From the sequence record KX130862: 64,000 nucleotides of DNA; one strand, given 5' to 3'. The translations under genes and the position numbers were made by a program. This document shows positions 423 to 42,126 of this stretch, in pieces (position 1 is the stretch's first letter; every line of letters starts with the position of its first letter). Origin of the DNA: Shigella phage SHFML-26. A model generated the notes under the pieces. It saw nothing but the letters and a program-made list of their open reading frames with translations, was not told the origin of the DNA and did no database searches.

Positions 423-2010
<1,588 letters not shown>

Positions 2011-2037
2011 AATAAAATGGGCCTTGCGGCCCACTCC

Positions 2038-2540
2038 TTAAAAGTATTTTTTAAAACTCATCATAACTTTATCATCAACATCATTATCAATCTGTGCAAC
2101 AAGGTAAGATGACAATTCTACTTCTTGTGGCGCAGATTGAACATTATCAGAATTAAGATATTCACGAATCCAAGGATATGGATGTTTAACCGGAGCATCG
2201 GTAATTGGGCATGGAAGACCACACTGCTTCATACGAGATACAGTTAAGTAATCAATAAAGCTCCACATGCTATTTGTATTTAATCCAGGAACATCTCCAT
2301 CTTTAAATAAATGAACTGCCCAATCTTTTTCTTGGCGGTTAACTTCCATGAAAATATCAACTGCTTCTTGTTCACACTCTTGAGCAATTTTAACCCATTC
2401 ATCGCCATCAGTACCAGATTGAAGTTGACGAATAATATATTGGGTGCCTTTAAGGTGAAGCTGCTCATCACGCGCAATGAACTTCATAATCTTAGCATTA
2501 CCTTCCATGATTTCCATATTCTTATGGAAGTTAAAGGTAC
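2038..2540 (-). CDS. nrdB: ribonucleotide reductase small subunit NrdB, exon 2
   Basis: MEIMEGNAKIMKFIARDEQLHLKGTQ... RNR beta C-terminal half; joins exon 1 in frame (676+503 nt = 393 codons). Confidence 0.85.
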
Positions 2541-3630
2541 CGTATGTTCGATTGAGCTCGCTAATTCTCAACCCGTTCTCTTATGAACTGCTGCATGTTA
2601 CCATGCAGTCCAGACTATATCACAATCCCGGAGGGATTCTCCCCATTTCGAGTCGCTTGACCCTACGTCCGAAGACTAGTCGTTGAACCTTGTTTTGCAA
2701 TTGTCGCCGTGCCATCGTTTATATGTTGATGGTGATAAATCTTTCTTATCACAATATGGACAATTCAATTGAATTCTATTTGGATTTAATTTACATCTGT
2801 CATTATGTTTTAGATAAAATCCAGGACCTTTACCAATGTGACCACAGAAATCACATGTGATTTCTTTTTGTGCAGGATGGGTCCCGTTCTTAACCATTTC
2901 TAATGTTTTTGCTGATGTTCTTTTCTTATGGTCTTCTGATAAGAAATGATGTGAACCGTCATTTACCCGTTTTGATTGAGTTTCTGACTGCATTTTACCA
3001 CCGCAAAATACATGAGTACCTTCTTTTATAGCTGCAATATTGCGTTCTTTAACTTTTGCAATATGCTCAGCTTGTTGAAAATTATGTATACCTAATGCAG
3101 CTCTATTTAAATTAGATTTACGCTGTATTTCACCATCTAAAAGATGAAATGTACCATTTTCTATCTTAGATTTAATAGAGGCAATATTTTTAGCTCGTAC
3201 TTCAGGGATATTAAAAATCTGGATTTCTCTAGATTTTGCGGCTTTAGAAGCTAATTCAGAAATTTCTTCAGGAGAATATTTCATTCTAAGCTTTATAGCA
3301 TGACAAGCCTGGTAATCTTTTTGAGCTAAATGTATATCATAATGTTCCTGTATAGAAAGGCACATCAAATTATCTAAATCATTATTTTCACGGTTACCGT
3401 CTTTATGATGGATTTCGTATGTTCTTCCATCAGAATCTTTAGGTATAGGTCCGTTAGCATCTATCCAAATTTTTCTATAGTTCAATTGTGCATCCTCTTA
3501 AAAGTATAATCATATTTATATTATACTAATTAAAGGTGCAAGCAAAACCTTGGCTGCTAGTTTTCCTATAAAGGACTTTCCAGCAATTAAAGGAGTTTTC
3601 GATAAACGTTACCGTTTAAAGGCGCATTTT
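2541..3630 (-). mobile_element. group I self-splicing intron in nrdB (about 1090 nt) carrying I-TevIII
   Basis: Exon 1 ends on U, intron ends on G; 3' core (approx 2571-2690) resembles the td intron 3' core at 8081-8225; contains an HNH endonuclease ORF. Confidence 0.8.
2676..3485 (-). CDS. I-TevIII: HNH homing endonuclease I-TevIII, full length (269 aa)
   Basis: Intron-encoded ORF with HHKDGNRENNDLDNLMCLSIQEHYDIH HNH motif and C-terminal Cys-rich zinc-finger-like region. Confidence 0.85.
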   Translation of the reverse strand: MNYRKIWIDANGPIPKDSDGRTYEIHHKDGNRENNDLDNLMCLSIQEHYDIHLAQKDYQACHAIKLRMKYSPEEISELASKAAKSREIQIFNIPEVRAKNIASIKSKIENGTFHLLDGEIQRKSNLNRAALGIHNFQQAEHIAKVKERNIAAIKEGTHVFCGGKMQSETQSKRVNDGSHHFLSEDHKKRTSAKTLEMVKNGTHPAQKEITCDFCGHIGKGPGFYLKHNDRCKLNPNRIQLNCPYCDKKDLSPSTYKRWHGDNCKTRFND

Positions 3631-4306
3631 ACGCAAAAGATACATAAAAACGAATTGCTTCTAAGGCATTAATAACGTGCAAACAGAGGTAAAGAGATTT
3701 CATTAAAGCACGTTTAGCTTCGGCTTCTTGTTTAATAGCTCGGTTTAAACGAAAATCGGCATCAGGAGATTCTTTAGCTAGTTCTACAAATTCTTTAGCA
3801 TTTTCCCATTCACGGGTTTTAATCAGAACGTCATCATAATAGCGTCCAATGGATTCAGCACGTTTCATAATAGCTTCATCTAATACAATCTCATCAAATA
3901 CCTTTGACGGATCAGTATAAAGATTTCGCATGATATGTGTATATGAACGGCTGTGAATAGTTTCACTAAAAGTCCATGTAGCAACCCATGTATCAAGACT
4001 CGGGTCTGAAATTAATGACATAAGTACAGCAGACGGCGCACGACCCTGAATGCTATCTAAAAGTGATTGATACTTCAGGTTGTTAGTAAAAATATTTTGC
4101 TGGTACTGAGGAAGCTTATTAAATTGTGCAGCATCCATCATCAAGTTTACTTCTTCAGGACGCCAAAAAAATGATAAAGATTTCTCAATAAGTTCTTCAA
4201 ATACTCTATGTCGTTGAATATCATATCGAGCTAAACCCAATCCAGAACCAAAAAACATCGGCTCAGTCAAAATATTAACAGGGGATGTATTAAAAACTGT
4301 ACTCAT
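3631..4306 (-). CDS. nrdB: ribonucleotide reductase small subunit NrdB, exon 1
   Basis: MSTVFNTSPVNILTEPMFFGSGLGLARYDIQRHRVFEEL... ending ...RFYVSFA then T of the split Cys codon; track ORF stop TAA lies in the intron. Confidence 0.85.
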
Positions 4307-7208: not shown

Positions 7209-7525
7209 AAGTCCTCAACTTGAAAATCGTCTTTAAACAATCGGTTAACTATATGAGCTATTATATCACCATGACACGGCTTTGGTTTACATGTGCATCC
7301 TAGCCTCATTCCACGTAAAGGCTCTAAATGTGCTTTAGTTATTTCTCCGGATTTAATTCGACGTATAAAATCTTTTTTGAATAATTCAATGGCAGCCTCC
7401 CGGCTGCCAGCATCTTTACCGACGTAATTTCCCCAAAATGTACCGCGGTGAATATTAACATCAAAGTCGGATTTATATTTATTCACTACCTGGCATAGAC
7501 GGCCCGCGCGGTGATAATTCGTCAT
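7199..7525 (-). CDS. hypothetical protein (108 aa), possible metal-binding [11 protein letters not shown] motif
   Basis: Track ORF; co-oriented between td and nrdA. Confidence 0.5.
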
Positions 7526-36964: not shown

Positions 36965-38785
36965 CTACTGACTCATCCATTCTTTACGAAGGTCAGCATT
37001 ATCTCCCATGAGCATTTCAAAAAGCTCTTTCCAGTTCTCAGGAAGTTTAACAACATCATATACTGGGTTTTGAATCATCTCACGATATTCAGATTTTTCC
37101 AAAGAGCCAAGTCCCTTAATATAACGGATGCTATGTTTAGGTAGAGCATCTTTGGCACTCTCATATTCAGCGACTGTATAAAACCATTCTTGTTTTTTAC
37201 CGACCTGAGCGATGATTACAGGAGTTTTGACAAAACGAATTCGTCCTTGCTCAAACAATTCTGGCCAATTACTAAAAAATCCGAGCAGAGAAGGATAAAT
37301 GCTTCCTAGACCATCATGGTCAGCATCAGTCATAATAGCAATATTATGATAATTCAAGTTTTCAGCTTTTTCACCGAGAACTAATCCAGTGATTGCGCAA
37401 ATATCAAACAGTTCTTTGTTTTTAAGCATATCTGCATAAGACATACCCCAACTGTTGAGAACTTTACCGCGCAATGGATAACCACCGTGAAGTTCTTTAT
37501 CACGAACATCAATAAGATATCCGATAGCAGAATCACCCTCAGTCAAGAAAAGAGTAGTATCAGCATCTTTACCGCAAAGATTCGCTTTGATATGTTTATG
37601 AACCTTAGCTTTAGAAGCCTTTTTAGCTGCTTTAGTTTCTGCTGCTTTTTCTGCCGCCAATTTACGAGCCAAAGCAGCTTCAATAATCGGCATTAGAATT
37701 GCTTCATTATTTAGAATAGCACGTGAAATCTTTTTAGCATCAAGCTGAATATGACTACGGATTTCACCAAATGGAGAAGTCAAACGCTCTTTAGTTTGAG
37801 AATCAAATCGCATGTTTTTCATATCACGGACAAACATAACGATAGTCAAACATTCTTTAACGCGTGCTTTAGTCACATCAATTTTGAACTTACGTTTGAT
37901 TTGTGGAATAAGGTCTTCACAAATATCATCCATAACACAGTCAATGTGATGGCCACCATTCTTAGTGTGGATGTTATTCACATAAGTTAATTGACGAAAT
38001 CCATCCGGTGAACGACCAACTGCAATAGAACAATTTTCTTGTTCTTGAACAATAGCATGCTCATCATATTGGCGTGCATATTTCTTAAAATTGCCCTGAA
38101 CCTTTTTACCATTAAAGGTAAATTGAATATCAGGATAAACTACTGCAAGTGTCTGGAGACGATCTAATGTAATGTCAAGATAAACTTGGGACAGCTCATT
38201 AGTTTCAAATGACATAAAATCAGGAATGAAAGTAACACGAGTTCCTTTCCATTTTCCAGGAATATCTTCCCATGATTTATTTTCCATGCCATTTGAACAA
38301 CGAACTACAATATTATTTTGACCATCACCAGTTTCACCGACAAACATCACAGAAAAAATGTTAGTTAAACTAGAACCAACACCGTTCATACCACCGGTGA
38401 CACGTTCTTTATCATCACCGAAGTTACCACCTGCTTTTGGAATAGTCCATGCAGCAACAGGACCAGGAATTTCTTCACCGGTAGGTGTTTTAACCATCGC
38501 TTGTGGAATACCACGACCGTTATCTTCAACTGTTACTTGATTGTTTTTAATAGTAACATTAATTTTATTTGCGAATTTAAACTTAGTACGAATACCTTCA
38601 TCTACTGAGTTATCGATAATTTCATCAATAAGCTTAACAAGACCAGGTACATACTGAACACTTTCCCATTTACCAAACAGAAAGCGCTCATGCATTTCAT
38701 TAGCTGAAGAGCCAATGTACATGCCGCTACGCTTTTTGATATGTTCAATATCACTCAGAATTTTAATTTCATTCTTAATCATCAC
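36965..38785 (-). CDS. 39: DNA topoisomerase II large subunit, uninterrupted (covers T4 gp39 plus gp60 equivalent)
   Basis: 606-aa GyrB-like ORF MMIKNEIKILSDIEHIKKRSGMYIGSS... running through the TOPRIM/C-terminal region without the gene-60 split. Confidence 0.9.
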   Translation of the reverse strand: MMIKNEIKILSDIEHIKKRSGMYIGSSANEMHERFLFGKWESVQYVPGLVKLIDEIIDNSVDEGIRTKFKFANKINVTIKNNQVTVEDNGRGIPQAMVKTPTGEEIPGPVAAWTIPKAGGNFGDDKERVTGGMNGVGSSLTNIFSVMFVGETGDGQNNIVVRCSNGMENKSWEDIPGKWKGTRVTFIPDFMSFETNELSQVYLDITLDRLQTLAVVYPDIQFTFNGKKVQGNFKKYARQYDEHAIVQEQENCSIAVGRSPDGFRQLTYVNNIHTKNGGHHIDCVMDDICEDLIPQIKRKFKIDVTKARVKECLTIVMFVRDMKNMRFDSQTKERLTSPFGEIRSHIQLDAKKISRAILNNEAILMPIIEAALARKLAAEKAAETKAAKKASKAKVHKHIKANLCGKDADTTLFLTEGDSAIGYLIDVRDKELHGGYPLRGKVLNSWGMSYADMLKNKELFDICAITGLVLGEKAENLNYHNIAIMTDADHDGLGSIYPSLLGFFSNWPELFEQGRIRFVKTPVIIAQVGKKQEWFYTVAEYESAKDALPKHSIRYIKGLGSLEKSEYREMIQNPVYDVVKLPENWKELFEMLMGDNADLRKEWMSQ

Positions 38786-38853: not shown

Positions 38854-39121
38854 ATTTAAAACGGATAGTCGAATCCTTAAAGAACAACCCAGAACATACG
38901 GTTCCTTCTACTTTTTGCCCAGTAGGTCCAATAGCACGAAATCCAGTATGCTGGAAATCATTTTCAGAGCAACCGAACCAGTTATATCCAGTGATTTCAA
39001 TATTAGTAAAACCACTTGAAGACAAAATTTTAGTTGCATTATCAGCATCAGTACATCCTACTAAAGACACTACTAGTACTAATGCCGCGATAGAACGATT
39101 AATATATTTCATAATTTTCAC
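38852..39121 (-). CDS. putative lipoprotein (89 aa)
   Basis: Signal peptide with lipobox LVVSLVGC. Confidence 0.55.
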   Translation of the reverse strand: MKIMKYINRSIAALVLVVSLVGCTDADNATKILSSSGFTNIEITGYNWFGCSENDFQHTGFRAIGPTGQKVEGTVCSGLFFKDSTIRFK

Positions 39122-39489
39122 TCAAATTTAATGGCTTGAAGGAGACTAATAATTCTCAAGCGACTTCCTTCATCTTTAACTGTAAAAGAAAGAGGGTCAC
39201 CAGACTTCATAGTGATAGTGCATTCAAAATCAAAATCTTCGGGAACTTCTTCGAAGAAGTCAAATTCTTCATCATAAATTAAAACTTCACTCCGAAGACT
39301 GTGAAGAATTTTTCCGTCATTTCCAGATGCTGTACTAATCATTGTAACATTATTACCTTTCATATCTTCAACGATAAATTCGCTTGTAGATATTACATTA
39401 CTAATAGAACCATTCCTATAAATAGCAGAAAATAGATATTTCTTTTCTTCACCTTCGCGAATGCGATATTTCTTACCAATTTTAAACAT
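39118..39489 (-). CDS. hypothetical protein (123 aa)
   Basis: Track ORF. Confidence 0.5.
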   Translation of the reverse strand: MFKIGKKYRIREGEEKKYLFSAIYRNGSISNVISTSEFIVEDMKGNNVTMISTASGNDGKILHSLRSEVLIYDEEFDFFEEVPEDFDFECTITMKSGDPLSFTVKDEGSRLRIISLLQAIKFE

Positions 39490-39670: not shown

Positions 39671-40084
39671 TTATTCCTTAAAGTGAGCTTTCAACATCTG
39701 ATACAAGGACCATGCCTGTTCATTATTTTCAATAGTAACTTTCATTACAGGGAATTTAGATTGATCAGTTATCGGTGCAGATTCTTCCTGCTCTTCAGCT
39801 GCCTGGTATGGATTTTCAACTTCATTAAAGAATTCAGCTTCATTCGATGAAAGCCAAATAAAATCTTCATCCAAAATATCTTTACCAGAAGATAGTACTA
39901 AATTTCCAGCAAATGACATAATTTTAATAGGACGCCCAAGAGCATCCACATCTAAAATTTTAAAAGGATGCATACCTAAACGGCGTGCATAGATTCCGTT
40001 ATCAGTATGGTCTTTAATAAAATTTTCTTGAGCTTGTTTATTTTTAAATTGATACCATTTATTAACTTCAAATCTAATAGCCAT
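39671..40084 (-). CDS. hypothetical protein (137 aa)
   Basis: Track ORF. Confidence 0.5.
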
Positions 40085-40302: not shown

Positions 40303-40473
40303 AATTTCCTCATTAATTGAACATTGGAGCGATGCGTTTCAGAAGAGTATCAGCGCACCTTTAACGAATTATCCATTTTATTCTTCAAGTTGTTTTCTGT
40401 ATCAGTAGTTGATATTGATATAGTACCATAATCAACTACTGATGTATATAGTTTTATGAAAAAATTTTAAACT

Positions 40474-40965
40474 TTATGCATAGCGAGCTTTGCTGTAGTG
40501 TTTAATCCAACTTTCAGGAATGACTTTGTATGTTCCTAAAAATACCGCGTTGTATAACTTAACGCCATCTTCTACCCATTGATCAGTAATGTATGCACAC
40601 ATAGCGCGAGTACGCTGAGGAAGTGGTTGTCCACCTTCGGTAAATTCAAACTCATAAGGAGCAATGAACTTGATAGCTTGACCAAGTTTCCACTTAAAGT
40701 CTACACCTACATGCGAAGTATCAATCGTTTCAATTCCTTTAGCAGGAACAGCTTTCAAAAACGCAGGCTCAAGAAATTTCCATCGAACATAACCAAACTG
40801 GGGCTTAGACATTCCATCTTTAGCAATGATACGTACTTTTACTTCAGAATCTTCATCTTTAACACCGTGTTTAAGCTGAATGCTTACAACTTCGACCAAT
40901 TTTCCTGCTGCTTTAGAACGGGATTTATCAGATACACGAGCAATTTCACCGATATTAATATTCAT
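40474..40965 (-). CDS. hypothetical protein (163 aa), paralogue of 41042..41584
   Basis: C-terminal segment CAYITDQWVEDGVKLYNAVFLGTYKVIP shared with neighbour. Confidence 0.5.
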   Translation of the reverse strand: MNINIGEIARVSDKSRSKAAGKLVEVVSIQLKHGVKDEDSEVKVRIIAKDGMSKPQFGYVRWKFLEPAFLKAVPAKGIETIDTSHVGVDFKWKLGQAIKFIAPYEFEFTEGGQPLPQRTRAMCAYITDQWVEDGVKLYNAVFLGTYKVIPESWIKHYSKARYA

Positions 40966-41041
40966 AATTATCTCTCACTTGTTAAAAAGATTTTATACTC
41001 CACAGGACCATTATACTCTGGTCCCAAGAGTTTGTAAACTA

Positions 41042-41584
41042 TTAATTCAAAATAGCTACCACTGCACTACGAGGTACTACGCTAAAATCACCTGCATGAA
41101 CAACGTTCAGGAGTTCAACACCATCTTCAATCCATTGGTCTGTTACCCAACCGCAGACGCAAATGAATGGAGTCTTGATAGCAACTGCACGAGTCAAAAG
41201 GTCAGTAGGATCAACTTCTTGGAAGAGGATAAGCTCTGCTTCAAAGACTATAGTTTTAATTACTTCATCATTATCTAAGCGATGTGCTCGAATCACATAA
41301 GCTTTATTCTTATCATGCCAATTACTTTTTGAAAAACTTTTAACCACAAACTCGCCTTCACCAAAAACACTAGTCAATGCTTTATAACCCAAATCTAGTT
41401 CAGTAGTTTTAATTTCAGTTTCAACCAGTTTGTAGGTTTTGCCAATTTCGATGGTCCGAGCAGTCATAAATGTTTCCTTAATTTCTAATGGTTTAATAAG
41501 AGTGCCGTACATGCTTGCTATATCCATATCAAACAGCTTATCTACAGGATTCGGTGTGTATTCAGGATTATAATTAAATTTCAT
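41042..41584 (-). CDS. hypothetical protein (180 aa), paralogue of 40474..40965
   Basis: C-terminal segment CGWVTDQWIEDGVELLNVVHAGDFSVVP. Confidence 0.5.
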   Translation of the reverse strand: MKFNYNPEYTPNPVDKLFDMDIASMYGTLIKPLEIKETFMTARTIEIGKTYKLVETEIKTTELDLGYKALTSVFGEGEFVVKSFSKSNWHDKNKAYVIRAHRLDNDEVIKTIVFEAELILFQEVDPTDLLTRAVAIKTPFICVCGWVTDQWIEDGVELLNVVHAGDFSVVPRSAVVAILN

Positions 41585-41586
41585 AA

Positions 41587-42126
41587 TTATCTCATTTCAA
41601 TAAAATCTACAAGTTCAGCATGGGATTTACGGAACATTACTTGGTGTCCGCCAATAATAACTTGGTCATCTGGCACTTCGTATACAGCAAGATAAAATCC
41701 TTTAGAAGATAATTCTTCACGCTCTTCTCGTGTGAACCATCTCATCATATCATATTCGCTAGCGAAAGCAAAATGATAAAGAGCTACAAACCATCCGGGA
41801 ATATGATATTCTACTCCAACATAATCTTTCTTGAACTTAGTATTAATTACGATATTAGCATTTTTAACTAATAGTTTGTCTTCGTGCGGAAGAGGAATTC
41901 TTTTATTATCATTACTATGATGCATAAAATTAGGTCTGTCATAACCTACGTGTAATAACCACTCTTCACTCCATGAATCTATTATACTTCTATATGGCGT
42001 TATTTGAACACAAAGATTTCGACGTATTGTTATAGCATCTTCATAATTAAGAATACTAAAAGATGATTCAACACGATAAATTTTCATTTTATTATCCTCA
42101 GTAGCTATGGTGTTATAATACCACAA
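41587..42126 (-). CDS. hypothetical protein (179 aa)
   Basis: Track ORF. Confidence 0.5.
   Translation of the reverse strand: MWYYNTIATEDNKMKIYRVESSFSILNYEDAITIRRNLCVQITPYRSIIDSWSEEWLLHVGYDRPNFMHHSNDNKRIPLPHEDKLLVKNANIVINTKFKKDYVGVEYHIPGWFVALYHFAFASEYDMMRWFTREEREELSSKGFYLAVYEVPDDQVIIGGHQVMFRKSHAELVDFIEMR

Follow-up and report, generated by a model that had tools for sequence, protein, structure and literature searches.

The window (the whole 64,000-nucleotide stretch of Shigella phage SHFML-26 that was analysed, record KX130862) contains the early gene pair motB and motB.1 of a T4-like phage of the genus Tequatrovirus. The 3.5-kb stretch around the pair has 96.7% identity with Escherichia phage vB-Eco-KMB26, and matches to it occur in 659 phage records. 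The two genes are adjacent ORFs of 163 and 180 aa, as a sequence-only reading of this DNA had reported, both on the minus strand, and the equivalence which that reading drew between the interval from gene 39 to dexA and the T4 motB/cef/goF region is borne out by gene order: the minus-strand order in the window (gene 39, small ORFs, a GoF-type ORF, cef, the 163-aa ORF, the 180-aa ORF, a motB.2-type ORF, dexA) agrees with the annotation of T4 (39, 39.1, 39.2, goF, cef, motB, motB.1, motB.2, dexA). The features of the pair are:

40474-40965, minus strand: motB coding sequence, 163 aa plus stop (Pfam PF17613, PHROG 1671, DNA alignment with T4)
40477-40698, minus strand: MotB C-terminal domain, aa 90-163, a five-stranded small barrel as predicted by AF2
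40498-40605, minus strand: shared core in MotB, aa 121-156, AMCAYITDQWVEDGVKLYNAVFLGTYKVIPESWIKH (hhalign columns 121-156; BLASTP 121-152)
40762-40965, minus strand: MotB N-terminal KOW-like barrel, aa 1-68, basic (net +4, pI 9.6)
41010-41038, minus strand: candidate promoter-like site, TTTACA-17 nt-TATAAT, in the 76-nt spacer between motB.1 and motB (consensus match only)
41042-41584, minus strand: motB.1 coding sequence, 180-aa allele, plus stop (PHROG 2333; place directly upstream of motB)
41045-41215, minus strand: MotB.1 C-terminal domain, aa 124-180, a predicted five-stranded small barrel, acidic (net -4, pI 4.3)
41054-41161, minus strand: shared core in MotB.1, aa 142-177, CVCGWVTDQWIEDGVELLNVVHAGDFSVVPRSAVVA (hhalign columns 142-177; Pfam motB 142-175)
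41216-41455, minus strand: MotB.1 middle barrel, aa 44-123, possibly GoF/LSm-like, acidic (net -3)
41456-41584, minus strand: MotB.1 N-terminal extension, aa 1-43, predicted to be disordered (pLDDT <50 for aa 1-42)
41507-41530, minus strand: DMDIASMY motif, MotB.1 aa 19-26, within the N-terminal extension and followed by G-T-L-I-K-P

The 163-aa ORF is MotB itself, beyond mere positional correspondence with the T4 gene: it matches Pfam PF17613 end to end (E 5.2e-94, 312.9 bits versus a 25-bit cut-off; residues 1-163, model positions 1-162) and PHROG 1671, 'MotB-like transcriptional regulator' (E 3.2e-75), and in an alignment its DNA hardly differs from T4 motB. It possesses an N-terminal KOW-like barrel with the motif V-S-x-x-S-R-S-K, and it lies in the dispensable early region that runs from cef to motB.1/dexA. 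The 180-aa ORF, directly upstream of motB on the same strand, matches PHROG 2333 over its full length (E 1.5e-76), as does the 143-aa MotB.1 of T4T (E 1.8e-68); its N-terminus is of a non-KOW type that lacks the KOW motif, and its core is of the MotB.1 type, with a DPTDLL lead-in (aa 125-130) followed by TDQWIEDGVELLNVVH (aa 148-163). Thus, the matches to PF17613, PHROG 2333 and T4T MotB.1 identify the two ORFs as motB and motB.1.

The function of both had been given as unknown, which is outdated for MotB. T4 MotB is toxic to E. coli, binds DNA unspecifically whether modified or not, co-purifies with H-NS and StpA and doubles the burst size (PMC6070864); the binding is tight and without sequence specificity, and MotB alters the footprint of H-NS on DNA while raising burst size about two-fold (PMC6070864, PMC7827196). 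This biochemistry is assumed here to carry over to MotB of the window, which appears from the DNA alignment to be a close orthologue.

The 76-nt spacer upstream of motB varies at one base among the window, T4 and KMB26, and the candidate promoter-like site in it matches 11 of 12 consensus positions, the top score in the scanned region. A terminator scan of the motB/motB.1 region found none. An imperfect inverted repeat (40401-40443), with a 3-nt loop and 20-nt arms that are 85% complementary, is found 30-70 nt 3' of the motB stop, ahead of cef, and is invariant in the window, T4 and KMB26; it has no T-run after it, which rules out a classical intrinsic terminator, and it could act in RNA processing or stability. 

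Several neighbouring genes merit mention. Two adjacent ORFs (39118-39489 and 39671-40084, minus strand; 123 and 137 aa) match the GoF-type PHROG 622 (E 1e-28 and 5e-39), and the window, as judged from these matches, has two adjacent GoF-family paralogues besides the barrel predicted inside MotB.1. MotB.2 (41587-42087, minus strand) has a weak match to the Pfam SRA (SET and RING associated) family (E 0.08, 13 bits versus a 30-bit cut-off) that is also found in T4T MotB.2 and is absent from the Mosigvirus and Kanagawavirus homologues; it is probably noise, and an SRA-like base-flipping fold, if true, would be interesting for a phage whose cytosine is modified. Gene 39, for the large subunit of topoisomerase II (36965-38785, minus strand), is one unsplit ORF of 606 aa, whereas in T4 it is split into 39 and 60.

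The C-terminal core shared by MotB and MotB.1

The two proteins had been described as sharing a C-terminal block, and both of the peptides quoted for it are present in the translations, with a similarity far beyond chance. BLASTP aligns MotB aa 121-152 with MotB.1 aa 142-173 (16/32 identical, 23/32 positive, no gaps, E 6e-11) as the sole significant local alignment of the pair. The Pfam motB model (PF17613) matches MotB.1 aa 142-175 above its cut-off (34 bits versus 25 bits), and the PHROG MotB model matches MotB.1 aa 121-178 (E 1.4e-16). A profile-profile comparison of 15 MotB.1-type with 23 MotB-type proteins, two alignments with no member in common, joins them over 36 columns (44% identity, probability 98.6%, E 1.2e-15). 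Direct sequence similarity of the pair thus covers only the last ~36 residues of the C-terminal domain. In the C-terminal barrel a nearly invariant hairpin, [TS]-D-Q-W-[IV]-E-D-G, is followed by x-L-x-N-x-V-x-x-G. A longer profile alignment of 98 columns, which included the N-terminal parts, was discarded because one protein (P0127) was present in both alignments.

The shortness of the block is all that speaks for a chance resemblance, or for a 180-aa ORF that is not a real gene, and either is vanishingly improbable given E values of 6e-11 to 1e-15 for the core. Furthermore, 232 cluster representatives match the 180-aa ORF at E <= 0.001, nearly all of the best 120 of these being full-length (mostly 176-183 aa, 92-100% coverage), and the gene is annotated in GenBank phage records. 

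The accompanying statement that the N-terminal regions are divergent holds in part. No sequence similarity is detectable between the N-terminal parts of MotB and MotB.1, and the profile-profile comparison of disjoint alignments gives MotB.1 no likeness to the MotB N-terminal domain; however, the N-termini look replaced rather than diverged, one being KOW-like and the other a barrel of the MotB.1 family.

Searching 1.84 billion cluster representatives with a profile of the C-terminal domain yielded 26 at E <= 0.001, of which 19 had E <= 1e-10; one of the 26, a 454-aa repeat protein (P0251, E 1e-4), is without the core motif. The seed alignment came from a word-indexed search with a two-sequence C-terminal profile, which found nine proteins, mostly fragments, and served no other purpose. 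A tblastn search found the domain in 779 phage records, with a T4-like phage in every genus-level row listed. As far as sequence comparison reaches, the domain family occurs in T4-like phages only. PF17613 is matched by each of the 14 representative C-terminal domains, and no other family is matched consistently.

Among the representatives, the MotB-type core (KLYN) is found together with the KOW motif, or in one protein (P0252) without a match to the motif pattern, and the MotB.1-type core (ELLN) is found with a KOW N-terminus in eight and with a non-KOW barrel in six. Three of the proteins (P0242, P0243 and P0245) are intermediates that combine the DPTDLL lead-in of MotB.1, the ELLN core and the long first hairpin of MotB; in P0243, VVRFQWPVEFEF corresponds to AIKFIAPYEFEF of MotB in the window. 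Because these intermediates bridge both types, homology spans the whole C-terminal domain, and the main difference between the two domains of the window is a deletion in MotB.1, which removes ~20 residues from the hairpin that connects strand 1 to strand 2.

Origin of the pair and allelic forms of MotB.1

That the genes are tandem paralogues which arose by duplication, as the sequence-only reading supposed, is supported by the homology of the core, and the same reading was published in 2021 (PMC7827196, section 3.2). Klebsiella phage KLB31 (Kanagawavirus) has a single gene between its motB.2-like gene and cef (3501-3956 of its locus), which joins a KOW N-terminus to a C-terminal domain of the MotB.1 type, whereas Shigella phage SHSML-52-1 (Mosigvirus) has three tandem genes (1612-3055 of its locus): motB.1, motB and a second motB of 139 aa. 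The existence of relatives that join a KOW domain to a MotB.1-type domain, single-copy in the Kanagawavirus, suggests duplication of a whole gene and then replacement of the N-terminus. An ancestral single gene for a KOW plus C-terminal-domain protein, as still present in a Kanagawavirus, would have been duplicated in tandem; one duplicate would then have lost the first hairpin extension of its C-terminal domain and had its KOW barrel swapped for a different barrel. This sequence of events is moderately probable, and its direction, from KOW to another barrel, we infer from the distribution of the types among a few genera.

T-even genomes are mosaic, and N-terminal cassettes have been exchanged at this very locus, so that the shared block might instead reflect recent recombination or gene conversion between neighbours. 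The DNA of the two cores, however, is no more than 53% identical, and 10/32 third codon positions agree, which is near random, and the KLYN and ELLN classes of core remain distinct across genera. The divergence of the pair is therefore old, recent gene conversion is excluded by the DNA identity and the third positions, and a recent exchange as the source of the block is highly improbable.

In T-even phages the N-terminus of MotB.1 behaves as a cassette, with one type per record: the window type is the commoner in GenBank (385 phage records) and the T4 type occurs in 160. The extension of the window type carries a motif, D-x-D-[IVLT]-x-[SCH]-[MA]-Y, that is restricted to MotB.1-type proteins and varies in position, being located in the inter-domain linker directly before DPTDLL in KOW-type relatives, and N-terminal to the inserted barrel in the window. 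It has the look of a mobile, linear peptide motif; beyond aa 19-26 of MotB.1, no match to it occurs when the window is translated in all six frames. A 43-aa protein of Escherichia phage BYEP01 (P0129) consists of the first ~15 residues of MotB.2 fused to the last 28 of MotB.1, which implies a natural deletion of most of both genes, consistent with a dispensable region. Such deletions may explain small peptides consisting of the core motif only, for example the 29-aa one of RB69 mentioned in PMC7827196.

In the T4 reference genome (NC_000866.4) the annotated product of motB.1 has 119 aa and ends GGWVTDQWIGRWR. Relative to the window and KMB26, the gene has one extra G in its conserved core (record position ~7304-7305, ~4305-4306 in locus coordinates; the equivalent in the window is ~41135-41140), past which the DNA still encodes EDGVELLNVVHAGEYSVVPRSAVVAILN in another frame, to the same stop, leaving an apparent 150-nt gap before motB. 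A 41-nt probe with the extra G, each 28-nt seed of which spans the G, finds AF158101.6 and NC_000866.4, the two copies of the reference record, and nothing else. Without the G, the probe finds 28 records, among those listed at least ten other T4 genome records (OZ209023, OZ209057, KJ477684-6, MT984581, MZ375356, OL964735, OL964745 and OZ035787), plus T4T (HM137666). MotB.1 is annotated as 143 aa in T4T (HM137666) and MT984581, and the other T4 genome records listed, at least ten of them, encode or are consistent with 143 aa. Since only the two copies of the reference carry it, the extra G is a reference-sequence error or a clone-specific mutation; programmed frameshifting was considered and ruled out by the T4 records, at least ten of them among those listed, that do not have the G. 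The mass quoted for MotB.1 in PMC12152347, 13.8 kDa, is that of the 119-aa form (13,804 Da), so that experiments built on the T4 reference sequence may not have tested intact MotB.1; neither PMC7827196 nor PMC12152347 mentions a frameshift. The truncation falls inside the conserved core and may matter to work on T4 early genes.

Predicted folds, charge and possible roles

Each protein is predicted to consist of two small beta-barrels and a flexible linker. In the AF2 model of MotB (mean pLDDT 78.6), the N-terminal barrel occupies aa 1-67, the linker is of low confidence (pLDDT <50 at aa 70-86), and block means of pLDDT in the C-terminal domain are 57 at aa 81-90 and 74-93 at aa 91-163, with strands at 97-108, 117-132, 135-142, 145-150 and 154-157, the last two separated by a short helical turn. 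The model of MotB.1 is of low confidence (mean pLDDT 58.9); its middle barrel has strands at 50-53, 78-86, 95-102, 108-114 and 121-123 (pLDDT 50-73), and its C-terminal domain has strands at 133-137, 142-153, 156-163, 166-171 and 175-179, in the same order as those of MotB.

The published assignment, from HHpred, is a KOW domain plus an OB-fold (PMC7827196), and it has been proposed accordingly that the C-terminal domain is a cold-shock-like OB-fold, itself nucleic-acid-binding, which would make MotB and MotB.1 both DNA or RNA binders that differ only in an accessory N-terminus. The modelled domain would fit an SH3-like small barrel (KOW/Tudor/chromo superfold), the marks of which are five strands, a short 3-10 turn ahead of the fifth strand, and matches to solved members. 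The models and fold searches covered full-length MotB and full-length MotB.1; the strand-and-turn pattern and the lists of fold matches, which as products of full-length models are not assignable to one domain or the other, appear to fit two SH3-like barrels better than KOW plus OB-fold. In sequence searches of the Protein Data Bank, neither the MotB profile nor that of the C-terminal domain found anything at E <= 10, and a Pfam scan of the 14 isolated C-terminal domains at E <= 10 gave PF17613 and scattered single matches, leaving the OB, Tudor and SH3 families alike without sequence support. By this comparison of models the conserved C-terminal module may not be an OB-fold, and the published proposal, although a minority prospect of some weight, is on the unlikely side.

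Charge bears on the same question. MotB of the window is basic (net +6, pI 9.3; KOW barrel +4, C-terminal domain +3, shared core -2) and MotB.1 is acidic throughout (net -8, pI 4.9; C-terminal domain -4); the shared core is acidic in both, and 11/14 representative C-terminal domains have a net negative charge. A mostly acidic domain with a nearly invariant D-Q-W-x-E-D-G is a weak candidate for the unspecific DNA binding of MotB, to which the C-terminal domain of MotB could nevertheless contribute, being mildly basic overall (net +3). The conserved acidic core might instead be a shared docking or dimerisation module rather than a DNA-binding surface, bringing MotB and MotB.1 to the same partner or to each other. 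DNA binding by MotB would then be due to its basic KOW barrel together with the basic hairpin extension that is absent from MotB.1, and the acidic MotB.1 would deliver to the same site an N-terminal specificity of another kind, directed at RNA or protein. This division of labour, drawn from charge and conservation, is put forward tentatively, as plausible rather than probable. It is more speculative still, and rather unlikely in so specific a form, that the C-terminal barrel is a phage-specific SH3/Tudor-like docking module whose invariant acidic-aromatic hairpin, TDQW-EDG, serves a common host target (such as H-NS/StpA) or joins the two proteins to each other, with the exchangeable N-terminal barrels and the mobile DxDxASMY motif supplying differing effector activities.

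MotB.1 might, alternatively, be an independent LSm-like RNA binder of the GoF/MotB.1/Frd.2 group, with a C-terminal domain that is merely a unit of folding or homodimerisation and has no common target with that of MotB. An LSm-like N-terminal fold has been assigned to T4 MotB.1, GoF and Frd.2, and T4 MotB.1 gives monomer and dimer bands (Kim et al. 2025, PMC12152347). There is also a weak cross-match between PHROG 2333 and the GoF-type PHROG 622: the 123-aa GoF-type ORF of the window matches PHROG 2333 (E 0.0036) and T4T MotB.1 matches PHROG 622 (E 0.0019), both weakly, while the N-terminal part of MotB.1 in the window, taken alone, matches PHROG 2333 only, with no PHROG 622 cross-match of its own. 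The middle barrel of the window protein is possibly GoF/LSm-like. Against the independent role, the effect of MotB.1 on a reporter was much smaller than that of GoF(D25Y) (PMC12152347), and the N-terminus in the window has no detectable similarity to that of T4, whereas the C-terminal domain is 66% identical, so that selection has been strongest on the C-terminal domain. The nearly invariant, surface-type TDQW-EDG is, moreover, common to MotB and MotB.1 across genera, which suggests that they have a ligand in common and that the motif is more than scaffolding. MotB.1 as an LSm-like protein with no target in common with MotB is thus considered unlikely. If, on the other hand, the docking module is real, the weak reporter effect is uninformative provided that the 119-aa form was expressed, as this is without the last three strands of the module.

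Together, the charge pattern and the fold predictions speak against the conserved module as the DNA-binding surface, and point domain dissection toward the KOW barrel; the single-copy KOW-type gene of the Kanagawavirus offers a simpler system for the role of the module. Taken as a whole, the account given here (the genes as motB and motB.1, and their products as two-barrel proteins) is considered likely, the proposed origin and mechanism having the lesser probabilities stated above.

Comparison with published work and known systems

Patterson-West et al. (2021, PMC7827196) described the conserved C-terminal domain that MotB and MotB.1 have in common and their different N-terminal regions, grouped the relatives in four categories by N-terminal type (MotB.1 comprising categories 2-4), found both genes in forty other phage genomes and proposed duplication of one gene as the probable source of the other. 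A literature text search for 'MotB.1' found the name only in that paper and in Kim et al. 2025 (PMC12152347). The paralogy, the shared domain and the idea of a duplication are therefore already published, and Pfam labels both proteins: the observation is real and statistically solid, but it concerns a known pair of paralogues and adds little. The modest additions made here are the arguments from fold and charge, the KOW-type intermediates, the narrow distribution of the domain and the truncation in the T4 reference.

The closest known systems include, besides the T4 proteins themselves, tandem SH3-like barrel proteins such as the tandem Tudor domains of 53BP1, the KOW pairs of Spt5 and domains I-II of EF-P. 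Members of the GoF/MotB.1/Frd.2 family resemble MotB.1 of the window in that its middle part is a predicted five-stranded barrel ending in a sequence of the E-A-E-L-I-L-F-Q-E-V type, as in GoF-type proteins, but the link between PHROG 622 and PHROG 2333 is weak and indirect (E ~0.002-0.004) and the model of MotB.1 is of low confidence, so that a place in this family for the N-terminal part of the window protein is tentative.

T4 MotB.1 occupies the same locus, belongs to the same PHROG family (2333) and is identical to the window protein at 49/74 positions of the C-terminal domain (66%, T4T MotB.1), including all of the last 14 residues. BLAST similarity between the two types is limited to these C-terminal 74 residues: the N-terminal ~110 residues of the window protein have no BLAST-detectable similarity to the N-terminal domain of T4 MotB.1, and the 43-aa disordered extension with DMDIASMY is present in the window form but not in the T4 form. 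T4 MotB is of the same length class as MotB of the window (162 aa versus 163 aa), has the same place between cef and motB.1 and is preceded by a spacer one base apart; the two proteins differ by a few substitutions and in a patch of variable sequence within the first hairpin of that protein's C-terminal barrel (EFTEGGQPLPQR in the window, NFIKDDGRVVY in T4), with no categorical difference between them.
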